A stretch of 64,000 nucleotides of DNA from Coraliomargarita sp. (lineage in GTDB: Bacteria > Verrucomicrobiota > Verrucomicrobiia > Opitutales > Coraliomargaritaceae), in assembly GCA_965216325.1 (NCBI GenBank), contig OZ244160.1, positions 1,760,001 through 1,824,000 of the forward strand, in the 5' to 3' direction. Positions 27,165-48,500 of this stretch are shown one piece after another; position 1 is the stretch's first letter, and every line of letters begins with the position of its first letter. A program made the translations under genes and the position numbers. Below the pieces are notes generated by a model. It was given only the letters and a program-made list of their open reading frames with translations, did no database searches and had not been told where the DNA came from.

Positions 27165-27559
27165 TGAGCGATTACCTACATCCCTCCGTTGACCAAGTAA
27201 TCGCAATCCATGCAAACGTCATCGCCAAGAGTGGCGGTTCAGACGGTATTCGCGACAAAGGTCTTCTCGAATCTGCAGTCGCAGCACCACAAGCGACCAT
27301 ATTCGGAGAACCCATTTTCGAGGACGGAATCGAAATCGCCGCTGCATATCTCTATTATCTTGGCCAGCATCACCCCTTCATCGACGGTAACAAACTCGTC
27401 GCTCTCGCGACCTGCCTCGTCTTTCTCTCCCTCAATCGACTACTGTCGAACCTGAGTCTAGACGAAGATGTCTGGGTTGAGTTCACACTGGATGTCGCAG
27501 CGAGTAAATTTACTCGCGAAGAAATGACTATGAAACTTCGCGACTTAATCAGTGAATAG
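27164..27559 (+). CDS. death-on-curing (Doc/Fic) family toxin
   Basis: [20 protein letters not shown] and HPFIDGNK(L). Confidence 0.88.
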
Positions 27560-29332
27560 CTAAATAGCCGCGCCAACCACCGCACGCAGAAATGTCTTCA
27601 GCACCTCCAGCTGCTGCAGCTTCGCAGAGAAAGCCGTGCACCTTGCGACCATCGCTCAACTCAAGTTGGCCAAGCCCTAAAGGCTGCTGAATCGTAGAAA
27701 GAAACTCACCTAGGCTTGCTTTCGGGAAACGCCACTCTTCTGCAGCGATCGAAGTCCCCTCTGCACCCACTCGAATGATTCCGGGGCGATGTGGCGCCGG
27801 CTCCGAGAGATAGATCATCTTGTAGAACGGTGCGGTTTTCACCTCGCCGACGAACTCAGCTCCGAGGCGAAGCACTTGCTGGTTCAAAGCAAGTCCGGAC
27901 ATGTGTGCACCGAGGAGTAAGACTGAAAGGGTGTCATTAGAGGTAGGGTTCGTTATCCCTAACGAACCGCCCGTCTGCTGAGCGGCAAGATGCGGAAATC
28001 CCACCCTACCTTCGGGTCCATCTGCAGCAATCTGCACCAAGGCCTTGTCCGTATCGCGTGGTGCGATCCAAGTAATCCCAAAGGGTAATCCATCCACAGT
28101 TTCGCCTGCAGGTGTCGCGACCGCACAGAGATCCAATAAATTCATGAAATTGGTATAGTAACCCAGCTGTGAATTGGGACCGATTGGATCCGCTTCCATA
28201 TCTGCCAAAGTCGGAAAACCGCCAGCGGTCGGTGTTACAATCGCCGCAAGCCCATCCCACACAGACTCGCTCTCACGCTTCAAGGCTGCCAACTTGTAAG
28301 TCGCGGCAAATGCTTCGCATGCAGAGTTGTCCAGCCCGCCGCCAATGATACTGCGCGTGGCCGGATAGAAATCGTCGGCATTACTTTCGAGGAAGTCTTT
28401 CAGTGCCGTGGTGCGCTCCGAAACCCACGGGCCCTCATATAACAAACGCGCCGCCTTTAAAACGGTTCAAAATCGATCTCAACGATTTCCCAGCCCTTCT
28501 CCTTGAGCCGATCCAAAGCCTTCAGCCAGACGGGTTGATAATCGGCATCCCCGAAGAACAACAACTGCTCCGGCTTCGGAATACCCAACTTATTGGATCT
28601 TGGTAGCGCAACATCACGCGTCGGCTGTGAATAGGCATCCGCAGCATCAAAGCCTTCCGCGACTTTCAAAACAGCCTGTCCGTCCTCAGCGTTGAGTGTA
28701 AAAATCGATACACAGTCCAAAGTTCGGCAGGCAGGAACGACACCACTGGTGCTCAGTCGACCACAGCTCGGCTTCAAGCCCCAGAGCTTATTGAACATCG
28801 CAGGCACACGTCCGGAGCCCGCAGTGTCGGTTCCTAAAGAAAAACTCACGAGCTGCTCAGAAAGCGCTACCGCCGACCCGGAGCTCGAGCCGCCCGGAAC
28901 ACGGTCCGGAGCGATCGGGTTGCGCGGCACTCCATAGGGACTCCGCACACCAACAAGGCCAGTCGCAAATTGATCCAGATTGGTTTTACCCAGAGGAATC
29001 GCACCTGCTTGTATCAGCTTTTCCACTACAGGTGCAGATTCTTCTGGTGTATAACTATACGCCTCGCACGCAGCAGTAGTCGGCACACCCGATAAATCAA
29101 TGTTATCCTTAATTGCAAACGGTATGCCATACAGCGGCAAGTCCGCTGGATCTGAGGACTCCAAGTTTTGCAAATACGGTTCCAACTCATCCCCACTGAG
29201 TTGCGTAATCCAAATCGCAGGGTTGTCGACTTTCTGAATGCGCTCAAGCAACTCATCTATCAACGTTCGAGGCGTAAGCTCACCTGAACGATAGGCACTT
29301 AACAGGCTTTGTATCTCTAATGTCTGCATCAT
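27549..29332 (-). pseudogene. atzF: allophanate hydrolase split by a 1-nt frameshift at ~28459-28462 (may be a sequencing error)
   Basis: The N-part has the amidase signature ([41 protein letters not shown]). The C-part has [21 protein letters not shown] and GAHMSG. Adding one T joins them as [15 protein letters not shown]. Confidence 0.9.
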
Positions 29333-29403: not shown

Positions 29404-32400
29404 TTAATTGGGAGTCACACCGAATAGAGCCTGCCCCGGTTGAACTGCTTGGCCCTCCTTGCACAGGCACCCGCTCAGCGTGCCCGCAACTGGTGCATCG
29501 ATCTTAATCTCCATTTTCATGGATTCGAGGACAGCCAAAGTCTCACCCGCTTCAACCGACTTGCCGACTTCACTGACTAGTATCTTCCATACGCTCCCTG
29601 CCACCGGACTCTCAACGGCTTCAGCGCCTTCAGGAAGGCCTGGCCCATCGTCCTCAGCCTGCATGATCTCTTCTTCGACAAAAGTGTCCAGGCCAGTCGC
29701 TTTCCAATGTGCACGCTCATCGTCAAAGGCTACCTGCTGTTGTGATTTAAACTCTGCGATACTCACTTCATTCTTCGCCAAGAATGCTTCGTATTCGCTT
29801 AGGCTGAAATGTCCCTCTTCGATCTTTGGCTCAAAGCGCCCTTGTGGGAAGTCTTCACGCAGCTCCAAGAGTTCCTCAGCGCTTACCGGATAGTAGCAAA
29901 TCTGGTCGAAGAAGCGCAGGAGCCATGGTTTGCCTTCCTTGAACGAAGCGGTGCTGCGATAGCGATTCCACATTTGCACCGTGCGCCCAACAAACTGGTA
30001 GCCTCCGGGCCCCTCCATGCCGTAGATGCACATGTAGGCGCCACCAATGCCCACCGCATTTTCCGGTGTCCAGGTTCGAGCGGGATTATACTTGGTCGTA
30101 ACCAATCGATGACGCGGATCGAGCGGCGTGGCAACCGGCGCACCAAGATAGACATCACCCAGTCCCAACACGACATAACGTGCATTGAAGACTACATTGT
30201 AGACATCCTTCACGGAATGCAGGCCGTTGATCCGACGAATGAACTCGATGTTATCCGGACACCATGGCGCATCCGCACGCACCGATTGCATATACTTTTC
30301 GGTCGCCAGTTCGGTCGATGGGTCATCCCAAGAGAGTGGCAAATGCACGATACGTGAAGGCACCGTAATATCCTCCAGCGCCGGCAATCGTGCATTAGTC
30401 AATTGGATCCAGGCTGCTATCGACTCCGCGCCGACTTTGCCCGGATCGAAGTGGACCTGAAGCGAACGAATGCCCGGCGTGAGATCTTCGACCGCATCAA
30501 AGGCGTCCTGCTTTAATGCCTCGTAGAGCACGTGGATGTGAAAGCGCAGTTTGAAATCGAGCACCATCGGGCCGATCTCGGCGAGCACGTAGGCATCACC
30601 CGCCTGACGAATCACGAGACGATCATCACCCACTCCTTCGTCAACTAGGATCATTTCACCCTCATCCGGAATCCGCACCTGATTCGGCACCTCTAAATCA
30701 GTTTTCAAGGTCAGGATGCTCTCTTCATGAATGCTTCGTAGGATCTCTGCCTGCTCACGAGTTACACACCGAAAGCGCACCTTATCGCCCGGCTTGAGCT
30801 GCCCCATCTTCCAGAGTTCGCTTTGAATTATTGTCGCTGAGCAAACAAAGCCACCGAGACTAGGCCCATCGGGACCAAGGATCACCGGCATGTCACCGGT
30901 AAAATCAATCGCACCGATCGCATAGGCATTGTCGTGGATATTAGATGGGTGCAGGCCAGCTTCACCTCCATCAGCACGCGCCCACTCAGGCTTCGGTCCA
31001 ATCAAGCGTACACCCGTGCGGGCTGAGTTATAGTGCACCTCCCACTCGGCTTCGAAGAAGTCTTGAATGTCGTCTGGCTTAAAGAAATCAGGCGCACCGT
31101 GCGGACCATAGAGCACAGCGATATCCCAAGTATGAGTGAGCACGGGCTGCTGATCAGCCTCCAGGACGTATTGCTCAGCACCTTCGGGTTCCTCACCAAT
31201 GTGCAAGATATCGGCAACTCGTAAGGCCCGTCCGCCGTGGCCACCAAACTGGCCCAAGCTGAAGGTCGAACGGCTCCCCAAATACTTCGGCACATCGATA
31301 CCACCTAAAACACTTAGATAGCTGCGCACCCCAGCGCCGGTTGTCTTGCCAATATCCAGGATGGCCCCGGCCGGCACTTCAAAGGGCTTGTAGAAATCGA
31401 CCGATTCCCCATCGAGAGTGGCGTCCATTGCGGCACCCGTCAGCACGACTGTACATGTAGCGAAAAACTGGATACGCGGACCATTTGCAGTGATCTCCAG
31501 TCCAGCCGCATCGAGATCATTTCCCAGCAGGCGATTACCTAGACGGAACGCAAACAGGTCCATCGGCCCCGAAGGTGGCACACCCACTTCCCAATAACCA
31601 ACTCGCCCGGGGTAATCCTGCACCGTAGTCATCGTGCCACCACGCAGAATTTCAAAGCTGCGCGGTTCGAATTGGTGATCCGCCAACGACTTGGTTAAAA
31701 TGCGACCTTCGCGATACATCTCCGAATCGACGATGGAGCGGAGGTAATAAAGATTCGTTTCAATGCCATCCAGACGAGTTGCAGCTAATGCTGATTCAAT
31801 CGCTTTTACCGCTTGTTCGCGATCCTCAGCATAGACCTGAAGTTTCGCGAGCAATGGATCATAATACGGGCTCACGTCCATGCCTGACTCCAACCAGTGG
31901 TCGCAGCGAACGCCTTCCGGAAAATCGACATTGGTCAACAAGCCACTCGAAGGCTGAAAATTCTTGTTCGGGTCCTCTGCATACAGACGTGTCTGGATTG
32001 CATGCCCCTTCTGCGGCACAATCTTGGTCTCGGATGAAAGCGTCATATCGCCCGCAGCCATCTGCACCATCCAACTAACCAAGTCGACCCCGGTAACCAG
32101 CTCCGTGACGCCATGCTCAACCTGTAGGCGCGTGTTCACCTCGAGGAAGTAATAGTCACCAGTCGAATTGTCATAGACGAACTCAACAGTGCCAGCAGAG
32201 CGATACTTCACAGCCTTAGCGAGATTGAGCGCTGCTTCCTGCAAACCATCAATCACGGCATCCGCGACATTCACCGGCGGCGTCTCTTCGATGACCTTCT
32301 GATTGCGGCGCTGTGCGGAACAATCGCGCACCCCCAGAGAGACGACATTTCCCTGCCCATCACCAAAGATCTGCACTTCAAGGTGACGTGCTTGCTGGAC

Positions 32401-33003
32401 ATATTTTTCCAGGAAGATTCCACCTTGGCCGAAATGGCTTTTACTCAGGCGTTCGACACTTTCAAAGGCATCTACCAGTTCCGCTTCGTCGGCACACACT
32501 TGCATGCCGATACCACCGCCACCCGCAGTGCTCTTCAGCATCACCGGATAGCCAATGCTCACTGCAATCGTGGTAGCCTCTTCGACACTCTGAAGCAGTG
32601 GACTACCCGGCACCAGAGGAACCTGATTCTCTTCCGCGATTCTCCGTGCTTCATGCTTCAGACCGAAAGAGATCATCTGCTCCGGAGTCGGACCGATGAA
32701 GGCCATACCTGCCGCCTCGCAGGCCGCAGCAAAGTCTGCATTCTCACTCAGCAAACCATAGCCGGGGTGAATCGCTTGCACATGACGGTCATGGGCAATC
32801 TCGAGAATCTTATCAGCCTGTAGATAACTCTCGCTCACCGGAGATGGACCAACAGAGAAGGCCTCCGTCGCCATCGCTACGTGCGGCGCATTCTTATCGG
32901 CTTCCGAGTAAATCGCAACCGATTGAATACCAAGTTGATCGAGTGTGCGAATAACCCGACAGGCAATCTCACCTCGATTGGCAATAAGAACTTTAGAAAA
33001 CAT
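29404..33003 (-). CDS. uca: urea/guanidine carboxylase (biotin-dependent)
   Basis: Biotin carboxylase domain ([24 protein letters not shown]), carboxyltransferase domain ([23 protein letters not shown]) and biotin carrier ESMKME. Confidence 0.96.
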
Positions 33004-33077: not shown

Positions 33078-33713
33078 TTAATCCCAGATGAGAGCTTCAA
33101 CTGGTGTTGGGTTATAAGCGTTACAGGGGTTGTTGAGCTGTGGGCAGTTTGAGATCAGACACATAACATCACGCTCAGCTCTGAGTTCAACATAGCGCCC
33201 AGGCGCGGAGATTCCATCGGCGAACGTCAGTTTCCCTTCAGGTGTGACGGGCACATTCATGAAGAAATTAATATTACAGGTAATATCACGCTTACCAAGA
33301 TCAGGACCCCAGTGTTGGACACCGCAAATAAAGCTATCACGGCAGGCGTGCATGTGCTCCTTATCATGTGCATAGCGCATCGTATTACTTTCTCTTGAAC
33401 AGGCTCCGCCAAGCGTATCATGGCGGCCACATGTGTCAGCTACAATTCGTAGCAAAACATCGCCCTGTGTTGAAATAAGCTCCGTTCCAGTGGTCAAGTA
33501 GAGCGCTTGCTGTCGTTGAATCGTATCAGCCGCGCTATAGCGGTTTTCTGCGTCATGTGCATCGTAGAACAGTGTATCCGCTGCCTGATTTCCTTCGAGA
33601 TCAAGTATGCGCAGTGTCTGACCCTTCTTGATTTCATGTAGCCAGAAGTCTCCGGCCAAAATCACTTCACGATAAACGGCTGTTTCAGGATTGAGTGTGC
33701 TTTCGGTTAACAT
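33078..33713 (-). CDS. cgdB: urea carboxylase-associated protein 2 / carboxyguanidine deiminase subunit B (DUF1989)
   Basis: [34 protein letters not shown] and [12 protein letters not shown]. Confidence 0.9.
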
Positions 33714-33725
33714 GGTGCTCTAGTC

Positions 33726-34475
33726 CTAAAATCTAAGTGTGTTATAATCTTCTGTATTCTCGAACGCTCGGACGTTTTCTGGTCGACAAATTCGGCACGG
33801 ATCCTCTGCCGTAGCCCGTTCATTCTTGAAGACCTCGAGTTTCACATGTCCGGGGTCATAGTCTGGATTGGGGTCCAGTGGATGTTGGCAGGTGTTGAGC
33901 ACTACAAGTGTATCCAATTCAAAGCGCAAGTCGACATAGCTCCCCGCCTTTGAGGCTCCACTCACATAACTAAGTTTACCTTCTTCATCAGATACAACTT
34001 TGCTAAACCAATTCAAATTCGGCACCAAGTCACGTTTACCAAGGCCCCACTTTGCAAGCTCGATCAAGAATGCGCGCTGTGCATCTCGGTGGCAATCATT
34101 GCGTGCTTCCTGATAATTTTTAACGCCATACTTAGCTTCTATCAGTTTCTCATCAGAGCAACCACACACAGTATCATGCCAGCCCATAGTATCTGCAGTG
34201 ATCGAACAAAACAAACGGCCCATATCTGAATGCACACAGTAAGGTGCAGTTAAATAGAAGATGTGCTGCCCCTTCAAGGTATCGGGCATATTGTAACGCT
34301 CATGCTTCTCATAAGCATTGTAGAGGAGCATACTGACATTGGCTTTGCCTTCGATATCAGTCATTCGCAGCGTCTTGCCGCGACCGATCACTTTGGACCA
34401 CATCGTCGCACCATGCAATTTCGTTTCGTATATTTTCTCGGTAGCACCAAGCGGATTGGGTATTTTTGTATTCAT
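33726..34475 (-). CDS. cgdA: urea carboxylase-associated protein 1 / carboxyguanidine deiminase subunit A (DUF1989)
   Basis: [34 protein letters not shown] and CQHPLDP. Start placed at ATG 34475. Confidence 0.9.
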
Positions 34476-34498
34476 CTTTCGGATACGTTTGCAGAAAG

Positions 34499-35917
34499 TT
34501 AATATAGCCGCGCGTATTGATTGATCTCCCACTGGCTGATGCGCTGGTGGTATTGGCGCCACTCTTCAGATTTATATGTGATGAACTCATTGCGTAATTC
34601 ACTGCCAAGCACCTCCTCAACAAATGGGTCTGTGGCAAAAGCATGCACTGCTTCATCAAGACTCCGTGGCAGCTCACTGATACCACGCTCAGCGAGCTGA
34701 GCAGGTGACAGCTCGTAAAGATTGTCTTCTTGCGGATCACCCGGATCCAGTTGCTCTTTGATTCCCTGTAGGCCCGCGGCAAGCGCGAGTGCAGCCGCCA
34801 AGTATGGATTACAGGCCGCATCTGCATTACGCGATTCAACACGCCCGCCTGCCATCGGCACACGGAGCGAGTTGGTGCGGTTGTTACTACCATAGGAATT
34901 GAATACCGGAGCCCATGAGTAGTAGGGCATCAAGCCACGGCGCACCAAGCGCTTGTAGCTGTTGACCGTCGGGGCGAACGTCGCACACAAGGCTGGTCCA
35001 TGCTTCAATATACCGGCGCTGAACTGATAGCCCAAGTCTGTGAGCCCGAGGCCGCGTGGATCCTCCTCCTTTGAACATTTGAACAAGTTCTTCCCTGTCT
35101 TCTTGTCGTAGAGCGACATGTTGAAGTGCGCCCCACTGCCGGTCTTATCCGCAAACGGCTTCGGCATGAAGGTAGCAAGCAAACCTTCTTCCGCAGCATA
35201 ATGCTTAGCCATGTAACGGAAGAAGACAAAGCGGTCACACATGGTCAATGCATCGGCATATTTGAAGTCGAACTCAAACTGTGAATTTGCATCTTCATGA
35301 TCAAAGGAATACAACTCCCAGCCTAGATCATCGATAGTCGTTGCCATCTTATCGAGCCAGTCGTAACGATCCATGAATCGCTTAAAGTCGTAGCAGCTTT
35401 TCTCCAGATTATCGTCGCTATTCGGGATCTCGAGTTGCCCATCTTCGGTATGGCGGACCACGAACACCTCGCACTCGATGCCAAGATTCATACCGAAGCC
35501 CATTTCCTCTGCTTCCTTAAGAACCTTCTGCAGCACAACACGTGCATTCACCTCGTAAGGTTCTCCATGCAAAATGTTATCGGCTGGAATCCACGCCATC
35601 TCAGGGTTCCACGGCAGGGGAATGATCATTCCCAAGTCCGGAACAGAGGCGATTTCATCATCATTCGGACGCTGACCTAGACCATCTAAGGCATAGCCCG
35701 TGTAGAGCTCGGATCCATGAGCAAACTCTTCAAAGTGACTGAGTGGCACCACTTTGCCCTTAGGCACACCATGAATATCCACATAGTTGCCCGCACAATA
35801 CTTAACCCCAAGCTTTTCAAGTTCCGACTGAATCGCTCGGATCTGCTCGTCACTCCAGCGCTCCTCGCTGTAGAGATTACCCGCTGCTGTATTGTATTTG
35901 GCGTAGAATTCTTTCAT
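34499..35917 (-). CDS. type III glutamine synthetase-like gamma-glutamyl ligase (GlnT-type)
   Basis: [25 protein letters not shown]...[30 protein letters not shown] and CNPYL. Confidence 0.88.
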
Positions 35918-35930
35918 TTGTATTCAGATC

Positions 35931-36707
35931 TTAGATACGTTGAAAATACGATGTAGCGAGTGGTGCTTTCTCCACCAATCCTGCTTCAATACGTGTTGCT
36001 AGTTCGGTGACTATCTGCTCGAAGAGTCGTTCGCCTGCGCTCTGAGTTGCTTCACTTGGTTTGCCAGTCACACCATTTGTACTGGTGCGGTTAACCGGAT
36101 GCGCGAACACACAGTCAGCGGTTCGATCAGGATCATCCGAGCACTTTAGGAAATCAGGACGCACCATGCGTGGCGCAAGGGACATCATCAGGCTGGTTTC
36201 GGCAGCATTCGCATGCCAATCGTCACCATCTGTTGTGAAGGCAGCTTCTATTTCCGGCGAAAGATCACCATCATTAAAGGCTGCGATCATCAAATCATCA
36301 TACCGGCAGCGCATTGTGTCTAAAGCGCAGCGAACTGCAGCGGCATTGCCCACATGGCAATTAACCATGAACCATCGGCGGATACCAGCCTTATAGAGCC
36401 AATCACCAATATCGCAAAGAACCGCGATCATCGTTGTTGGGCTCAACGCCAAAGTCCCAGGCCAGCGGTGCGAATGACCAATCGAGCAGCCATAACCGAG
36501 GGTTGGTAACATTGGCACATTGGTGCGCTGTGCGACTTCACGGCACAGCTTATCAGCGAGGACACTATCCATGCCTGTTCCCAGATGAGGACCATGTTGC
36601 TCGGTCGCTCCCAGCGGCAGAATCGCGGCATCACAGCCACTCTTGATGGCATCAAGAATCTCTGGCCATGTCATCTCACTCCACTGACTGTTCATAAGCT
36701 CGGCCAT
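35931..36707 (-). CDS. creatininase/creatinine amidohydrolase family protein
   Basis: [30 protein letters not shown]...ETS and NGVTG.P. Confidence 0.9.
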
Positions 36708-36709
36708 GT

Positions 36710-37609
36710 TTATTCAACATCATCGTTCGCACTCGTCATACGCACCATTGGCAAGGCATGATCTTCGGCGTCTGTCTTTGGGTGAATTAAATCTTCGAGA
36801 CGTTGCTTGGTCGCAAGAAACTCGGGACTCAGCATACAGTCGGGTGTGCGTGGTCGTGGCACCGGCACTTCGATGAACTCGTGAATCTCGCCCGGGTTCG
36901 CCTTCAAAACCAAGATCCGGTCGGAGAGATAGATTGCTTCGTCCAAATCGTGTGTGACGAACATGATCGTGACGTCGACATTGCGCCAGATCTGCAGCAA
37001 GTGGGATTGCATCTGGCAGCGTGTGTGCGGATCCAACGCACCAAAAGGCTCATCCATAAAGAGAATCTGCGGCTGGTTTGCTAACGCACGGGCAATCGCA
37101 ACGCGTTGCTTCATACCTCCTGAGAGCTGACTAGGATACTTCTCAGCCGCATGTGCGAGGCCAACAAGTTCGATCCACTGCAGCGCTTCTTGCTCAACGG
37201 CGGTGCCGGAACGTCCGTTGACTTCTAGGCCAAACATTACGTTCTTTTTCACACTCAGCCATGGAAAGAGTGTATAGCCCTGGAAGACCATACCACGGTC
37301 CGCACCCGGGCCGCTTGGCTCTTCACCATCGAGAAGGAAACTACCACCTGAAAGCGTTTCCAAACCAGCAAGCATACGAATCAGTGTCGACTTACCGCAA
37401 CCCGACGGTCCAATCACCGAAATGAACTCGCGGCGATGCATGTTAAATTCAATCGGGCTGAGCACATCGACGGTGCCCTTGGCAGTGGTGAAGCTCTTGC
37501 TAACACCTTTAACCTCCAGCTTTATTGGTCGCTTGTATATCTCGGCGAACCGTGCACGGACGGCTTCGCTTTGCTCTTTGTAGCTCGGTAGTTCGATTAC
37601 ATCGTTCAT
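36710..37609 (-). CDS. NitT/TauT-family ABC transporter ATP-binding protein
   Basis: [36 protein letters not shown] and VTHD. Confidence 0.95.
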
Positions 37610-37612
37610 TGC

Positions 37613-38998
37613 TTATGCCTTTCCGTTAACAGGTGAGTCGTAGACCTTGCGGTCGAAAATCCAGAAGAAGAATCGTCCAATCAAACCGTGCTTCTTTTCA
37701 GAGGCTTCCGGTGTCCATGGGAAGAGATACTTTCGCAGGGATGAGAGGATTTGGTCGGTCGTGAAACCGGTGATACCAATTAGAATGATGATCGGGAACA
37801 CACTATCGAAGTTGCGCCAGCGGCCTTGCGTCTCGAGGAACTCAGTCAAACCACTCTTCACACCAATGAGCTCCGCAATCACCAGCCAAGTCCAAGCCCA
37901 GCCGAGCAAGATTCGTAGGTCATTAAATAAATTCGGCGTAATCCCCGGTAAAATAACACGACGAATAAGTGTCATGTTCTTCGCGCCGAGTGTTTGGGCG
38001 GCTTCAATCAGAGAGGCATCGAGTTGACGCGTTGTATTCGCGACCACCAGCACGAGTTGGAAGAAGGTGCCGACAAAGACCAAGGCGATCTTGGGTGCGT
38101 CATGCGCGAGAAAGATTGCAACCAAGAGCGTGCTGAACGCCGGTGCTGGCATATAGCGGAAGAAATCGATAAAGGGCTCAAAGAGACGAGAAAAAAAATC
38201 AAAGGTCCCACAGAGAACGCCAAGTGGCACACCGAACAAAGCCGCCATCAAGAAACCGAGGAAGACGATCTTCAGCGAGTGTTTATAGCGCTCAAACATG
38301 GATGGCTTGTCCCCATCCGAAGTGAAGGTGAAATCGTCGATACCCTTGAGCATTACCTCGTGTGGTGCAGGTAGATAAACTGGATTGGCCGACTTTCCTT
38401 GCGGAACCAACTTTTCAAGTGGTGTTTCTGGTAGCAACTTCGAGGCAAACTCCGGCGAACGCTCCGACATCAAGACCCAGTTGCGCTCGATGATCGAACG
38501 GTTCTCGTCGGTGAACTTGACCTTCGTTTCCTCCAGTTCCCCTTCAGCAACATCACGCCAGACATAATAAAGTAATTCATCCTGATCCTTTTCATCCTTG
38601 GTTAGCCACCCATTGGCCACTGCAACTGATGAGATGTGTCGCATCTTCTTAACATTTGCACGGCGGATTCGCGAAGCGCTGCCTTCGACCTCATCGGACT
38701 GACGGGCTTCTAGGATGGCCGTGTTATCGGATTGAATTGCAGCGACAAACTCTGGGAAATAATCCTTCGATAAGTGATCTCCCGAAGTGAATACAGTCGT
38801 TACATCCTCACGATCTGCAGAGATCTGCAACTTTACATCTGGATGCCAAATAAATGGTGTGTAGCTAACAAATGCCCAAACAAGCAATGGCAGCATAAAC
38901 GACAAGATTGTCAGGAGAGTGCGGCGTTTCGCACTGAGCTCTTTGCGTATGGCAAACCAAGATGGCTGAGCTTTCTTACTGTTTTTTGCGATACTCAT
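37613..38998 (-). CDS. NitT/TauT-family ABC transporter permease with a large extracytoplasmic insert
   Basis: [22 protein letters not shown] (EAA loop) and WTWLVIAE; 461 aa. Confidence 0.92.
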
Positions 38999-39034
38999 GC
39001 AGAGATTGTTGCAGATCAGTCCTTACTTTTGGGC

Positions 39035-39066
39035 AAAAAGAAGGCGGGCCGGGTCCGGCCCGCCTT
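39035..39066 (-). terminator. intra-operon terminator/stabilising hairpin after the substrate-binding protein gene
   Basis: AAGGCGGGCCGG..CCGGCCCGCCTT followed by CTTTTT on the minus strand. Confidence 0.75.
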
Positions 39067-39106
39067 GAACACTAACTAACCAATAGGTTAAAAAAGGGTA
39101 AGTGGA

Positions 39107-40108
39107 TTACTTGAGCGACTCTGCGTATTCGAGCACCAGACTTGGGTCCAGATACTTGTCGGTATCGAGGTTTTCCTCGTAAACGCCCTGGTCGACATTG
39201 AACTGGTCAGCGATTACAGTGGAACCGTAAACCGAACCGAGGCCTTCAGCCTTCTTCCAAATTGGAAGCGCTTCTTCGAGACTCAGGATGTATGTGCCTT
39301 CGAAGAAGGGTTCGTATTCTTCAGGTGAAATTTCAACACGTGCTGCAAGGATCTCGAGTGCCTCATCGAGGTTGTCTTCATCCTTGAGGAAATCGACGAT
39401 CTTATACCAGACCTTCACGACCTTCGCCCAATCATCGCGACGCTTTTCAAGGCTTTCTGGGTCAACCGAAAGCAGATCGTAAATGATACCCGGTGCGTCC
39501 GCAGAGGTCAGCACAGGTGTGGAACCTGGAACCGTCTTGAGCGCTTGACCGGAGTTTGGCTGCCATGCACCAATGGCGTCGACCGCGCCAGATGCAAGCA
39601 CCTGTGGTGTTTCGTTGGTTGGAACGTTGACGATTTCAAACTCGGAAGGATCGATACCTGCGAGCTCAGCACCCTTAAGAAGTAGAAGATGAATCACGAA
39701 ACCTTCTTCGAGGCCAATCTTCTTACCCTTGAGGTCTGCCAGTGTTTTGATACCCGGCGCTGCAACGACCATGTCGTTACCATTTGAGTAGTCGTTGATG
39801 ATAATGCCGACCGAAGGCTTACCAGTACCTCCGGTAACGAGTGCATCACCATTGGTCATCGTCACTGCATCAATAAGGCCAGCGGCGTAAGCATCCATCG
39901 ACGCGACATAGTCCATCCATTGAAATTCGACCGCAATGCCTTCTTCTTCAAACCAGCCCTTATCGATACCGATTTGCCAAGCGACCCATCCCGGCCAGTC
40001 GCTGTAGCCGATCTTAAGTGGTTCTTTGGCGGACAGTGCAGAGCCGACGAAGAGGCTCGTAACACAGAGGAGAGTAGCCTTGAAGGCCGAGGTCTTGATT
40101 TTGAACAT
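39107..40108 (-). CDS. NitT/TauT-family ABC transporter substrate-binding protein
   Basis: Signal peptide; [24 protein letters not shown] and VDAIGAWQP. Start placed at ATG 40108. Confidence 0.92.
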
Positions 40109-40195
40109 GATCAATTTCCTTAGATGTGTAGCTAGTAAGTCTTTCTCGTAGAGAACACGTCCTTCGACAGATCGGCCGAAGACAGGCACAGGATT

Positions 40196-40212
40196 TGCAG
40201 AAAGCATGCCAA
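40196..40212 (-). promoter_or_regulatory. sigma54 (-24/-12) promoter for the ABC-uca operon
   Basis: The minus strand reads TTGGCATGCTTTCTGCA, i.e. GG-N10-GC, about 90 nt upstream of the start codon. Confidence 0.65.
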
Positions 40213-40233
40213 CCCTCGAAAAGTGTTGAAAAA

Positions 40234-40261
40234 GTAATATGAATAAACCTGAAAGTATTAC
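40234..40261. promoter_or_regulatory. NikR-type operator
   Basis: Perfect GTAATA-N16-TATTAC palindrome with the same geometry as the E. coli NikR site GTATGA-N16-TCATAC, between the operon and the divergent regulator. Confidence 0.7.
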
Positions 40262-40287
40262 GATTTTCTAAACTCACAGCTATTCGT

Positions 40288-40743
40288 ATGACGATGGACA
40301 AAAATGATCATAAGGCGACTGCCGCCCGTATCAGTGTTTCGCTACCTCCACAGCTTGCCGCAGCGCTTGACAGGATGATTGAAGAGCGTGGCTTCCATAA
40401 TCGCTCGCAAGCGATTGCGGATATGATTCAGCAACAGCTAATTGAGCATCAGCAGGAGAAAAGCGATGCGGTCATGGCTGGCACGATCACGCTCATCTAC
40501 AATACTGCCAAGCCTGAACTCTTACAGAAGCTAACGCGTATTCAGCGTGAGCACATCCAAGAATGTATCAGCAGCCAGCATGTGCAGTTGGAAGGCGATT
40601 ACATCATGGAAGTTGTCTTGGTCCAAGGCCCGGTGCAGCGACTTCGTGAGATCACCGACCGTATGATCACCTGTAAAGGCGTCAGTTTCGGACGGCTGAC
40701 GCTCACAGATAAACTGATTCCGCAGGTGCACGGCCGCGGATAA
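40288..40743 (+). CDS. NikR-fold ribbon-helix-helix transcriptional regulator
   Basis: RISVSLP..L...LD.MIEERGF.NRSQAI.D (RHH) plus an ACT-like C-terminal domain GTITLIY...HV.L....MEV....G. Confidence 0.88.
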
Positions 40744-40928
40744 TTGCGCATTTCTGCAAATGCTTTTCATATTATGCAGTATTCCTCGGAAACAACTTGG
40801 CGTAAATTTGGATCTTTTAACGCGCTTCATCCGATGCATGACTGTATTTCACCCTATCAAATAGAGTCGGCACTTGCGTTTGGAAGCGGATCACATTTTT
40901 TCGGCAAATCACTAACCCACAGAATACT

Positions 40929-42434
<1,506 letters not shown>

Positions 42435-42639: not shown

Positions 42640-43524
42640 TTAGGATACCGACTTCCCGAAGTAGGACAACAGCCACATTTCTTTCCACAGACGATAACGG
42701 CCATTGTAGGTAATCTGTCCCTCTTCTTCCTGATGCATACGGTGCACCAAAAAGCCGTAATCCGTATTTAACCGCTCCAAGATCCGTTGCTGCTCATTGA
42801 TTTCCTCAAGCGGTGTATCTTCGAAAGGAATCGATATCATATTCGACTTAAGCAGGCGCTTGTAATGATAATTAAGCAATCGTGGCAGACGGCCTATTAG
42901 CGGCTTCCTAGACTGATTCCAGGCCTCTGGATAGTAACCACCAAAGGGCAAGAAATGATTGTCGGTAATCAGGCGCTGTCCGTCCTCACCAATCGTGCTA
43001 ATTGTATAACAAGCAGCGGCGTCTCCCTTACGTTTCGGAACAAAAAGCACCTGAATACGGGTTAACTGATCATCGCTTTCGTAAACCGAAGCACGTAAAA
43101 ATGTATCTTCAAAAAGCTCAGCCTTAAGCGCACAGACAGGCTTAAAGTCCTGCTTTCGCAACCAATCCTTTAATTCGATAAGCTCCTTATCGACAGGCCA
43201 TTCATCCCCATCATGGTTCACTCTAAAACTCGGAAACAATGGTAGATCGCTATTGCTGAGTGCTTTGATCGCAATCCAGTTGTAGCCAGTCTCCAACAAA
43301 AACCAAATACACAGTCCAGTGACAAAATGCACCCAATCCGGCCGCAAGGATAGTTCTGTAGCACGCAGAATAAAGGCAAAGATCGCTGCAAATAAAAACC
43401 AACGCATCCAGCGTGCGAGCACGTTCAACACTGGAAGTTGCACACGCCCACCGAGAATGGGTAAGAAAATCGCAAGCAAGGCACAGGCTAGAAGCAGGTA
43501 TTCGACTGTAGTTTCGTTAAGCAT
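42640..43524 (-). CDS. hypothetical membrane protein
   Basis: 294-aa ORF with three N-terminal TM helices, downstream of dnaN. Confidence 0.75.
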   Translation of the reverse strand: MLNETTVEYLLLACALLAIFLPILGGRVQLPVLNVLARWMRWFLFAAIFAFILRATELSLRPDWVHFVTGLCIWFLLETGYNWIAIKALSNSDLPLFPSFRVNHDGDEWPVDKELIELKDWLRKQDFKPVCALKAELFEDTFLRASVYESDDQLTRIQVLFVPKRKGDAAACYTISTIGEDGQRLITDNHFLPFGGYYPEAWNQSRKPLIGRLPRLLNYHYKRLLKSNMISIPFEDTPLEEINEQQRILERLNTDYGFLVHRMHQEEEGQITYNGRYRLWKEMWLLSYFGKSVS

Positions 43525-46769: not shown

Positions 46770-48500
46770 ATGAGCGATATGGATCCCAGTCAGCGAGCGG
46801 TTGCACTATTATTATTTGATACGCAGAACCGCTTGTTTTGCCCGAGTAACGATGATTTTGAGCTACAGCCTAGTATCTTTGCGGCTGACCTGGTGAGTGC
46901 GCAGAAACATGCTGAATCTCTCGTCGAAAACCTGGGAAATGTTCATGAGCTAGTTAATGTCACCTTTAAGGGACAAGAATGCGTTGTTTTTGTGAGCACT
47001 GTTTCAGCTGACCTATCGAACAGTAACTATCACAGTATTGATCAACTAGCCACGGCTAATACCTCGGCAGAGCTGAAAGCAATCCTGGACGCGATTGAGC
47101 CTCATTTGGTCCGTATACCTTACCTGGATCTTGGCGAGAACGAATACATTTATCGCTTCAGGACCGCTAAAGAGCGCAATCGAGGTGTTTATGTGGATCA
47201 GCAATCCGAAGCTTTATACCAGAGTGCACTCTGTTCAGCGATCAAGGCGGTTCGCCGAACTAAGGAGAAATCATCCGGAGTGCCGGCTGTTCTGGATTTT
47301 GGGGCAGTCCGCTATGTGATTCCGAGTCACTTTGGCTTTTGTTTAGGAGTGCAGAATGCAATCGAGCGCGCCTATGAGGCTGTTGCGACGAATCCGGGCA
47401 AGCGTGTTTTCATGCTGAGTGAGTTGATTCATAATCCATTTGTGAATGAGGACCTCCTAGCGCGTGGACTTCGCTATTTGCAAACGGACAAGGGTTTACC
47501 GCTTCGTGCTGACGGAACACCAGCTAGTGATGTGGACGATCCGGATGCATTGTGGAATCAACTGACTGGTGACGACATTGTGATCATTCCTGCATTTGGT
47601 GCGACGAATGAAGACAAGGCACGACTGATTCGCCGTGGTATTGCGATACGCGAAAATGATGCAACCTGTATGCTGGTTGAGAAGGTTTGGAAAGCTGCGC
47701 GCCGCTATGCCAAGGAGGGCTTTACCGTTCTCATTCATGGCAAGTCTGAACATGAAGAGACGAAAGCTACGTTTTCTAACAGCGCGGCACATGGTCCTGC
47801 GTTGATGATTCGGAATATGGATCATGCCGAAGCCCTTGCAAAGGTTCTCCAAGCAGAGGGACCTGAGAAGAAGCGTTTGTTTGAAGCTTCCTTTGATGGA
47901 CTTCATTCAGATGGCTTCGATGCGGAGCGTGATTTGGAAAAGATTGCCGTAGTGAATCAAACGACTCTGCTACGGAATGAAACTTTGCGGATTATTGATT
48001 ATCTGCGGGAAGTGATCGCCGCAAAATACGGTGCGGAGCAGGTCGAGGCTCACTTATGGTCCAAGGGTAAAGGAGATACACTCTGTTATGCGACTCAGGT
48101 TAATCAGGATGCTCTGCACAAAGCAGTTGAAAAATCGATTGATGCGGCGCTTGTCGTCGGTGGGCGTAACAGTTCGAATACTTATCAACTGTATCGTGTT
48201 TGTAAGGAGCGTTTTGGTGACGATGCACATTACATTCAGTCTGAATCTAATATTCTTTCGAAGGATCAGATCCGACATTATCACTTCCCTGTACACGGAG
48301 AAAAGATTAGCCAAAGCCAAACAGAAATTCGTCCATTCTTAAAAGAAAGCGACTCCGCCTTGACAATTCTGCTAACTGGTGGGGCATCGTGCCCAGATGG
48401 TATTATCCAGCAGGTAATCAATAAAATAAATAGCTTCTTTCCCGCACAAACACTGACACCAGTCGATGATATCGTAAAAACTTTTGAGTCTGAAGTTTGA
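46770..48500 (+). CDS. ispH: 4-hydroxy-3-methylbut-2-enyl diphosphate reductase with a long N-terminal extension
   Basis: FGFCLGV, ELIHNP.VN, PAFG, DATC, HEET, NQTT, LCYATQ..Q, VGGRNSSN and GGASCP. Confidence 0.92.
   Translation: MSDMDPSQRAVALLLFDTQNRLFCPSNDDFELQPSIFAADLVSAQKHAESLVENLGNVHELVNVTFKGQECVVFVSTVSADLSNSNYHSIDQLATANTSAELKAILDAIEPHLVRIPYLDLGENEYIYRFRTAKERNRGVYVDQQSEALYQSALCSAIKAVRRTKEKSSGVPAVLDFGAVRYVIPSHFGFCLGVQNAIERAYEAVATNPGKRVFMLSELIHNPFVNEDLLARGLRYLQTDKGLPLRADGTPASDVDDPDALWNQLTGDDIVIIPAFGATNEDKARLIRRGIAIRENDATCMLVEKVWKAARRYAKEGFTVLIHGKSEHEETKATFSNSAAHGPALMIRNMDHAEALAKVLQAEGPEKKRLFEASFDGLHSDGFDAERDLEKIAVVNQTTLLRNETLRIIDYLREVIAAKYGAEQVEAHLWSKGKGDTLCYATQVNQDALHKAVEKSIDAALVVGGRNSSNTYQLYRVCKERFGDDAHYIQSESNILSKDQIRHYHFPVHGEKISQSQTEIRPFLKESDSALTILLTGGASCPDGIIQQVINKINSFFPAQTLTPVDDIVKTFESEV

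Follow-up and report, generated by a model that had tools for sequence, protein, structure and literature searches.

A NikR-family protein without the nickel site as a candidate regulator of a guanidine-carboxylase operon in Coraliomargarita

A regulator gene of the NikR family stands divergently beside a predicted guanidine-carboxylase operon in the stretch of Coraliomargarita sp. DNA analysed here (64,000 nucleotides of contig OZ244160.1, hereafter the window), which raises the question of what a supposed nickel sensor does at a locus for guanidine use. The available text of a 2026 metalloregulator preprint (10.64898/2026.05.01.721428) regards NikR as a family specialised for nickel sensing, and that of a 2025 review (PMC12186494) names riboswitches as the sole receptors known for guanidine besides transporters and enzymes, with guanidine-binding transcription factors still to be found. 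In the literature outside subscription journals and supplements, we found no published description of a NikR-like regulator of a guanidine operon, and PMC12623156 makes no mention of NikR.

The regulator is encoded by the only NikR-family gene of the source genome:

40288–40743, plus strand: NikR-family regulator gene (RHH plus ACT-like NikR_C domain), 151 amino acids, assigned by Pfam, NCBIfam, an AlphaFold model and fold search

The reading frame holds a further in-frame ATG at 40294. Pfam placed RHH_1 at residues 14–51 (E = 1.3e-7) and NikR_C at residues 64–140, covering model positions 1–77 of 77 (85.1 bits, E = 3.8e-24). The AlphaFold model (pLDDT 90.9) begins with a strand region followed by helices at residues 21–34 and 39–58, and its C-terminal domain is of the beta-alpha-beta-beta-alpha-beta type (DSSP E-H-E-E-H-E); in a PDB fold search the top matches were all NikR, with TM scores of 0.73/0.82 for 2bj1. 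These assignments bear out the divergent RHH and ACT-like gene that the first-pass annotation had recognised. The protein scores over the cut-offs of two NCBIfam models (NF003381, 123.7 bits against 105; NF002815, 91.4 against 83), which is why annotation pipelines call it NikR; its 80.9 bits on TIGR02793 lie under that model's cut-off of 175.45.

The regulator shares its RHH and ACT-like build and its fold with canonical NikRs (E. coli 1q5v/2hza/2hzv, P. horikoshii 2bj1-2bj9, H. pylori 2ca9/6mrj), and its base-contacting strand reads R-x-S-x-S where that of E. coli NikR reads R-x-T-x-T. The metal site, in contrast, is largely gone. A gapless phmmer alignment with E. coli NikR (1q5v), in which the query residue equals the E. 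coli residue plus 11, pairs the Ni ligands H76, H87, H89 and C95 with R87, H98, Q100 and I106, so that three of the four high-affinity ligands are missing; the alignment with P. horikoshii 2bj1, also gapless, had the same outcome. An earlier alignment by eye, which read R, H, Q and I with only H87 left, is thereby reproduced. Further His and acidic positions of canonical NikRs are lost as well: the His pair at query positions 73/74 is absent from the clade around the regulator, and positions 41, 44 and 45 are Q/A/E there versus E/R/D in canonical NikRs. The clade has gained a PP-x-H C-terminal tail, which is specific to it and reads IPQVH in the source protein.

This loss extends far beyond one protein. 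The H-H-H-C ligand set was found in none of the 120 nearest database relatives of the regulator, and in a FastTree phylogeny of 154 rows a single branch (support 91) parts 87 rows, all lacking H-H-H-C, from 67 rows, 61 of which carry it. Within the clade, conservation is good in the ACT-like domain and in the PP-x-H tail; the former Ni-site positions differ among members, and no new conserved pocket is evident at that place. H98 and the tail His are frequent, and three operon-embedded relatives keep H-H-H-Y and may bind metal. The alignments and the model support the view that the regulator is a NikR fold without the Ni site, and it is most probably not nickel-responsive.

The neighbouring operon lies on the minus strand:

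39107–40109, minus strand: ABC substrate-binding protein (NMT1/SsuA-like), by family matches; five aligned relatives share its start ATG at 40109
37613–38998, minus strand: ABC permease, by family matches
36710–37609, minus strand: ABC ATPase, by family matches
35931–36707, minus strand: creatininase-family hydrolase, a family-level assignment by family matches
34499–35917, minus strand: glutamine-synthetase (GS) type III-like ligase, a family-level assignment (TIGR03105, 618.6 bits)
33726–34562, minus strand: DUF1989/UAAP1, CgdA-type carboxyguanidine deiminase subunit (TIGR03425, 327.2 bits against a cut-off of 205.95); the actual start probably lies downstream of 34562
33078–33713, minus strand: DUF1989/UAAP2, CgdB-type subunit (TIGR03424, 333.7 bits against a cut-off of 284.7)
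29404–33003, minus strand: biotin carboxylase of the urea/guanidine carboxylase family, with Asp at both signature positions
27549–29332, minus strand: allophanate hydrolase (Amidase and AH_C domains), two ORFs in the assembly

An extra base behind 28458 is present in contigs that come from four runs on the same sample and restores a single allophanate hydrolase frame, so the split of this gene is an assembly indel. In the available text of PMC11410670, guanidine carboxylases are told by Asp at K. lactis positions 1330 and 1584. D700 of the carboxylase, within AIDFTGD, is paired with N at chain index 737 of 3va7, which is K. lactis 1330 when the numbering offset of 593 is taken from 5i8i, and D950 aligns to D991, K. 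lactis 1584. By this published criterion the enzyme, judged from its sequence, is of the guanidine-carboxylase type. The D700/D950 signature and the CgdAB pair uphold the earlier description of the operon as one for guanidine carboxylation and not for nickel uptake. For urea, the source genome has a separate urease cluster, which also contains a CbiM-family gene.

Regulator and operon travel together. Among 151 genomes sampled from the order, the CgdA family exceeded its cut-off in 19 and a NikR-family gene was present in 19, with both in 17, and 16 of the 20 NikR-family places lay beside or inside the operon, although the related genomes behind these counts are not independent samples. Outside the order, 20 loci selected by score, not at random, comprised 12 operon-linked copies, none with H-H-H-C, and 8 unlinked copies, all with H-H-H-C. 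A weak 37-residue match in an Acidobacteriaceae genome (L004), one of four loci from a single-protein contig search, was disregarded. The operon occurs without the regulator in two genomes (G105 and G148). Conversely, a ligand-less copy with operator but no operon lies beside a HupE/UreJ-family membrane protein and an amidohydrolase in G127, and the regulator of G074 is convergent with a urease-ureJ cluster; these two neighbourhoods therefore leave room for a residual metal link. Taken together, the gene neighbourhoods support a tight linkage of regulator and operon across the order and the phylum. With moderate confidence, we place the gene in a large NikR-derived clade that abandoned nickel sensing and provides a dedicated transcription factor of the guanidine-carboxylase operon.

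The intergenic region contains a site that such a factor could bind:

40234–40261, no strand assigned: operator GTAATAT-N14-GTATTAC (= GTAATA-N16-TATTAC), an exact dyad, recurrent in relatives

It lies 26 bp upstream of the regulator start codon and, measured from its centre, about 62 bp upstream of where the operon is predicted to start. Like the E. coli NikR site, GTATGA-N16-TCATAC, it is a dyad with half-sites 16 bp apart that starts with GTA. With up to one mismatch allowed, GTAWTA-N16-TAWTAC turned up at two places in the window, compared with an average of 0.08 over 100 shuffles, and of the two, the one at 47035 has a mismatch; the palindrome with NikR spacing that had been described at first sight is thus exact and well above chance. 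Its conservation upstream of orthologous operons, proposed as a check, was found as well: GTAWTAC-N14-GTAWTAC (at least 13 of 14 positions) was present in 18 of 23 related sources, with 24 matches, all intergenic and all with a 14-bp spacer even though spacers of 13 to 15 were permitted. These matches lie upstream of the first operon gene, the regulator or cgdA. In L030, L034, L037 and L042, whose regulator gene is embedded in the operon, an operator is nevertheless at the operon start, 5–6 kb away.

In the 3.06-Mb source genome, no intergenic sequence apart from the operator at 40234–40261 matches at 13 or more of 14 positions, so the regulon appears limited to the guanidine operon. Four other operator-like matches were set aside, as all lie within long ORFs and have G+C-rich spacers; the one at genome position 1911363 falls in a gene without a family assignment that neighbours a PilM-like gene. 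The urease/CbiM-family cluster has no operator-like match of at least 12 of 14, unlike the nickel regulon expected of a NikR. From the recurrence and placement of the site, the regulator is very likely operon-specific and binds this operator.

These data bear on the possibility that the regulator is still a metal sensor, acting through another site such as H98 plus the tail His and sensing nickel or another metal required by enzymes of the nitrogen-scavenging island, for instance urease or the creatininase-family metallohydrolase. We regard this as quite improbable. The score over the NikR cut-off of NF003381, the frequency of H98 and the tail His in the clade, the H-H-H-Y forms inside operons, the HupE/UreJ-family genes adjoining the regulator in G127 and G074, and the urease and CbiM-family genes of the source genome would fit it; set against them are the loss of three ligands, of the His pair and of E/R/D at positions 41, 44 and 45, and the lack of an operator-like site at the urease/CbiM cluster. 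The regulator is also kept in operons without a creatininase-family gene, and the guanidine-carboxylase route needs no nickel, according to the available text of PMC12186494.

Between operator and operon lies a promoter-like element:

40196–40211, minus strand: sigma-54-type box TGGCATGCTTTCTGCA, GG and GC ten bases apart, conserved in relatives

The box was judged against the sigma-54 promoter consensus TGGCAC-N5-TTGCW, which it matches. A sigma-54 element 21 bp from the palindrome had been reported in the first-pass annotation; the box is present, but the gap is 22 bp. The sigma-54 pattern matched twice in the window against 0.81 expected, a number reached by 17 of 100 shuffles, and the box by itself lacks significance; it gains weight from being conserved in relatives and not from single-window statistics. 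Of 21 operators, 13 have a sigma-54-type box within 60 bp (15 matches against 1.3 expected), and in six close relatives the operator-box gap is fixed at 21–24 bp. The second match in the window (29114–29129) is inside the allophanate hydrolase gene and was taken as chance. A second sigma-54-like box facing the regulator, AGGCACAGGATTTGCA at 40184–40199 on the plus strand, was rejected, the GG being missing in a 91%-identical relative (L001), and a plus-strand scan for a sigma-70 promoter of the regulator found none. The source genome encodes the machinery that such a promoter would use, with one Sigma54_DBD match (rpoN) and three full-length Sigma54_activat matches (E = 3.9e-66 or better) for enhancer-binding proteins. 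Transcription of the operon is predicted to start near 40185. In more distant relatives the operator is located on the predicted start; here, at about -62, it is clear of the sigma-54 holoenzyme footprint, which makes repression less straightforward than in those relatives.

This geometry would also suit a regulator that binds DNA ligand-free, as an architectural factor or anti-activator that regulates itself and sets a basal level or a bend while the signal arrives via an enhancer-binding protein. A position of about -62 is typical for bending proteins at sigma-54 promoters, the 21–24 bp spacing is fixed in the six close relatives, and the old Ni-site positions are variable in the clade. Nevertheless, the conserved ACT-like domain and PP-x-H tail suggest that a sensing or assembly role has been kept, and an operator on the start site in other relatives fits a switchable repressor, so that we consider ligand-free action improbable. 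We hold it likely that the regulator is a repressor rather than an activator.

Downstream of the predicted start, the operon has a short leader:

40110–40185, minus strand: predicted 5' operon leader of about 76 nt, without an Rfam match or an unusual fold

Operons run by riboswitches in P. syringae, Raoultella and Klebsiella (available text of PMC12186494) contain the same ABC importer, CgdAB, Asp-signature carboxylase and allophanate hydrolase, the source operon having an additional creatininase-family gene and GS-like gene. The control element of guanidine-I/II riboswitch operons occupies a common position, upstream of the importer or, in relatives, of cgdA; it is an RNA aptamer in those operons and a candidate protein operator with a sigma-54-type promoter here. 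In operons of this type a guanidine riboswitch in the leader is common, though not universal. The suggestion that the leader holds no guanidine riboswitch agrees with all scans. Rfam at gathering score gave no match in the whole window, and a permissive scan of 39000–41000 gave four weak, unrelated matches and no riboswitch, the best at 23 bits against a cut-off of 58.7; these (L20 leader, Chloroflexi-1, mmgR and SNORD48) were rejected as far under their cut-offs. Rfam found no riboswitch in 23 related loci either, where a 5_ureB_sRNA match in L029 merely marks a urease gene. Guanidine-I riboswitches were found in none of the 151 genomes of the order sample and none of 151 from the phylum. From these counts and the 23 riboswitch-free loci, the regulator appears to replace a riboswitch in distribution, which is a different matter from demonstrated functional equivalence.

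It is very improbable that sensing falls to a leader RNA element of an undescribed kind, with the NikR-like protein acting as an autoregulator only. The leader is long enough for a small aptamer; even so, it has no Rfam match at a permissive threshold, and its folding, computed for 85 nt, is unremarkable (z = +1.20, with 180 of 200 shuffles at least as stable). Its conservation ends with the 91%-identical relative, unlike that of the operator and the sigma-54 box, and operators are located at the start of operons even where the embedded regulator gene is far away.

We therefore lean towards a repressor dedicated to this operon and blind to nickel, with guanidine as a candidate effector. Tetramer formation is a trait of the NikR family, and by homology to solved NikRs the regulator tetramer would place its two RHH dimers on the pair of GTAWTAC half-sites, two helical turns apart within 40234–40261. 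The sigma-54 promoter, its -24 box 22 bp from the operator, would drive the importer, the creatininase-like, GS-like and CgdAB proteins, the guanidine carboxylase and the allophanate hydrolase. Bound regulator may repress both divergent units, at the operon by hindering the contact of the activator with sigma-54, and in distant relatives with the operator on the transcription start by classical occlusion. A small molecule bound by the ACT-like domain would release the regulator from DNA. Such an arrangement has a parallel at the level of domain architecture in ferredoxin-like (ACT/RAM) regulators such as Lrp/AsnC, which combine a beta-alpha-beta-beta-alpha-beta domain at the oligomer interface with a small DNA-binding domain and are often specific to nitrogen or amino-acid operons; their DNA-binding domain is an HTH, as against the RHH of the regulator.

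The identity of the small molecule is the least firm part of this reading, and guanidine or a close guanidino compound is put forward tentatively. The proposal of the first-pass annotation, a repurposed NikR scaffold that senses the organic nitrogen substrate on top of sigma-54 nitrogen control, is partly supported. The regulator might instead respond to nitrogen status or to a product of the pathway, the candidates being glutamine, 2-oxoglutarate, ammonium-derived metabolites, urea, allophanate and carboxyguanidine, with the ligand as a co-repressor like Ni in NikR. ACT-like domains commonly bind amino acids, the ligand promotes DNA binding in canonical NikR, and the operon combines a GS-like ligase with a sigma-54 promoter. 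A general sensor, however, would show several loci where this genome has one intergenic operator, and sigma-54 with an enhancer-binding protein could already give nitrogen-status control. Moreover, in four loci that lack the GS-like gene (L002, L029, L034 and L035) the regulator is still found with importer, CgdAB and carboxylase. A nitrogen-status or product sensor is accordingly unlikely, if less so than the other alternatives.

For the clade, the target appears to have shifted from nickel uptake, as in canonical NikR, to a guanidine-catabolic operon with a sigma-54 promoter, and database labels of the type 'nickel-responsive regulator NikR' are a systematic mis-annotation of its members. 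The clade supplies a defined protein and a defined DNA site of 28 bp as a testable candidate protein switch for guanidine use. In its boldest form, which we advance only as a possibility, the proposal is that this is the first protein transcription factor for free guanidine (guanidinium): a NikR scaffold with its nickel site dismantled, whose ACT-like domain, with a new PP-x-H tail, is re-used for a small nitrogen compound, which holds the place of the riboswitch in the sampled Verrucomicrobiota and gates sigma-54 promoters either on the start site or, as an anti-activator, at about -62. If the guanidine response is true, it would answer the question of a protein guanidine sensor, give an example of a metal sensor turned metabolite sensor, and supply a protein-based part for guanidine biosensors.

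The regulator gene lies divergent from a minus-strand guanidine-carboxylase operon that begins with an importer gene, as listed below.

Features of the regulator and the adjoining guanidine operon
40288-40743, plus strand: regulator ORF, 151 aa; Pfam RHH_1 at residues 14-51, NikR_C at 64-140 (E 3.8e-24)
40196-40211, minus strand: sigma-54-type box TGGCATGCTTTCTGCA, GG and GC at sigma-54 spacing
39107-40109, minus strand: NMT1/SsuA-type binding protein, divergent from the regulator
Operon, after the binding protein, minus strand: ABC permease and ATPase
34499-36707 together, minus strand: creatininase-family hydrolase, then type-III glutamine-synthetase-like ligase, between importer and cgdA
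Operon, minus strand: two DUF1989 proteins (TIGR03425, 327.2 bits; TIGR03424, 333.7 bits; both above cut-off)
Operon, minus strand: biotin carboxylase, 1199 aa (TIGR02712)
27549-29332, minus strand: allophanate hydrolase, two ORFs in the assembly, break near 28458

Against NCBIfam, the regulator scored above the cut-off of the NikR equivalog NF003381 (123.7 versus 105 bits) and below that of TIGR02793 (80.9 versus 175.45 bits). This scoring explains why its relatives are named "nickel-responsive transcriptional regulator NikR" in the sources. The 3.06-Mb source genome contains one NikR-family gene. An AlphaFold model built from a 58-row alignment had a mean pLDDT of 90.9 and a strand-helix-strand-strand-helix-strand order in its C-domain, and its top matches among solved structures were NikR throughout, such as 2bj1 (TM 0.73/0.82). 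In phmmer, the regulator aligned without gaps to both E. coli NikR (1q5v; regulator residue = E. coli residue + 11) and P. horikoshii NikR (2bj1). The E. coli nickel ligands H76, H87, H89 and C95 face R87, H98, Q100 and I106, exactly the replacement (R, H, Q, I) that the first-pass annotation had read by eye.

We surveyed the ligand positions in those of 268 stored relatives that were 100-230 residues long. The full H-H-H-C set was present in 62 of these aligned relatives and in 0/120 of the nearest (P0001-P0120), which carry RHL[IV], RHQx, HHFI and similar patterns. Comparison of 80 cluster representatives without H-H-H-C against the 62 canonical NikRs demonstrated that this clade lacks the canonical His pair (regulator positions 73/74), has mostly Q, A and E at positions 41, 44 and 45, where canonical NikRs have E, R and D, and has gained M63, E92, Q113 and a C-terminal PP-x-H tail. 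In a FastTree phylogeny of 154 rows, a branch of support 91 (not starred) separated 87 rows, none with H-H-H-C, from 67 rows, 61 of them with it; an H-H-H-Y group was basal on the ligand-less side. This topology, from an unrooted tree made by a quick method, is consistent with the nickel site having been lost mainly once. Operon-embedded NikR-like genes at three related loci (L038, L041 and L042, from genomes G055, G005 and G121) keep three His, with Tyr replacing Cys; these H-H-H-Y forms may represent an intermediate stage with metal binding retained.

By the definition in PMC11410670, guanidine carboxylases carry Asp at both 1330 and 1584 of the K. lactis numbering, and urea carboxylases carry Asn at 1330. 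With an offset of 593 between chains 3va7 and 5i8i in K. lactis numbering, D700 (AIDFTGD) of the operon carboxylase faces N1330 and D950 faces D1584, which identifies a carboxylase of the guanidine type. The allophanate hydrolase is split by a single-base discrepancy within a homopolymer. Contigs from four sequencing runs of one sample (depth 380-1350) all carry one extra base behind 28458; the deposited sequence near this position is therefore probably wrong and the gene intact, and the pathway looks complete. The creatininase-family and GS-like gene pair also occurs in most related loci and is missing from four (L002, L029, L034 and L035). Two further features of the window were recorded: the 461-aa ABC permease (37613-38998) has a long N-terminal extension, its transporter domain starting at residue 256, and a 294-aa ORF flanked by gnd and dnaN (42640-43524, minus strand) has no Pfam or NCBIfam match.

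Among 151 sampled genomes of the order, a NikR-family match was present in 19 and CgdA, of the DUF1989 pair CgdA/CgdB, exceeded its cut-off in 19, with both in 17; 16 of 20 NikR-family places adjoined or lay within the operon. The non-operon places were on 5-kb contigs in genomes G150 and G006 (the latter H-H-H-C), a second copy in G073 (pattern RTHV), and G127, where CgdA is absent from the genome. In the G127 region (L027, 10001-13906), the ligand-less NikR-like gene (pattern RDLI, operator present) is preceded by genes for a HupE/UreJ_2 membrane protein and an adenine-deaminase-like amidohydrolase, and may represent a different regulon of the same clade. Complete guanidine operons at L053 (G105) and L054 (G148) yielded no NikR-like gene, operator motif or Rfam riboswitch. 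At the phylum level, 134 of 401 genomes had a NikR-family match. Outside the order, we retrieved 20 of the 24 places with the highest scores, a choice made by score and not at random: 12 copies lay within the operon directly upstream of cgdA, none with H-H-H-C, and the 8 located elsewhere all had H-H-H-C and none the tail. In genome G074 (L029, 3526-9953), the NikR-like gene is convergent with a complete urease cluster (ureABC, E, F, G, D and ureJ/hupE) and has its operator on the side of the guanidine operon. This assemblage is a nitrogen-scavenging island, and may offer a clue to how a nickel regulator ended up beside nitrogen-scavenging genes.

The perfect GTAATA-N16-TATTAC palindrome described in the first-pass annotation is exact at 40234-40261, between regulator and operon; with one mismatch allowed, 0.08 matches are expected per window. 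Its conservation at orthologous operons, which that annotation had proposed checking, was assessed with GTAWTAC-N14-GTAWTAC (at least 13/14 positions, spacers of 13 to 15 permitted) in 23 sources: the window, L001-L003 and L025-L043, L003 and L026 being one contig. The operator was present in 18 (24 matches, all with a 14-bp spacer), and none was found at this threshold in L036, L038, L039, L040 and L043. Matches lay 5' of either the first operon gene or the regulator, or separated cgdA from the importer/GS genes, with conserved half-sites and A+T-rich, unconserved spacers. Loci with an operon-embedded regulator (L030, L034, L037 and L042) have a second operator 5-6 kb away, at the start of the operon, a pattern which argues that the regulator controls the operon and not itself alone. 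At the 13/14 threshold, the source genome contained five matches with a 14-bp spacer and one with a 13-bp spacer, spacers of 12, 15 or 16 bp giving no match; the window site was the sole intergenic one. No operator-like match of at least 12/14 was found at the genome's separate urease cluster, which includes UreD and a CbiM-family gene and lies approximately 100 kb from the operon.

The sigma-54 pattern matched twice in the window against 0.81 expected, so the box alone is not above chance. It carries weight because of the boxes beside operators in relatives: with near-copies L001 and L003 excluded, 13 of 21 operators had a box scoring at least 12.5 of 15.5 no more than 60 bp away, and the 15 matches compare with 1.3 predicted from how often boxes occur across these loci. 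The source genome encodes one rpoN and three full-length enhancer-binding proteins. In the window and the close relatives L001, L002, L025, L026 and L028, a gap of 21-24 bp separates the operator from the -24 box downstream of it and puts the operator's centre near -62. In the more distant L029-L033, L037, L041 and L042, the operator begins no more than a few bases past the -12 box, at the predicted start site, a position that argues for a repressor. The -62 position in the window would suit an anti-activator or possibly an architectural role. A second sigma-54-like box, AGGCACAGGATTTGCA (40184-40199, plus strand), overlaps the first by 4 bp and faces the regulator; its GG is not kept in the 91%-identical L001, and it is probably a chance match.

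The first-pass annotation's view that the leader holds no guanidine riboswitch held up in an Rfam scan: a permissive search of 39000-41000 returned only four weak, unrelated matches, and the whole window gave none at gathering score. The 85-nt leader folded no better than shuffles (z = +1.20), and its conservation stops at the nearest relative. No riboswitch matched in 23 related loci, the fetched loci being the scope for guanidine classes II to IV. Guanidine-I was found in none of the source genome, 151 order-sample and 151 phylum-sample genomes, in a search that detected the B. subtilis control and used stricter filters in the larger scans.

Taken together, sequence and comparison establish a predicted NikR-fold protein without a nickel site, a conserved dyad of NikR geometry with adjoining, conserved putative sigma-54 boxes, an apparently strict linkage of regulator to guanidine operon, and no recognizable RNA switch. 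A literature search found no description of such a regulator, and a 2025 review (PMC12186494) calls protein guanidine sensors yet to be found. The former nickel-site positions vary within the clade, and therefore no ligand pocket can be named. Guanidine is the simplest guess for the effector, since the regulator remains associated with the importer, CgdAB and the carboxylase at loci that lack the two extra enzymes as well. The regulator tetramer would bind the operator and repress both the operon and its own gene, a small molecule in the ACT-like domain would release it, and sigma-54 would add control by nitrogen status.
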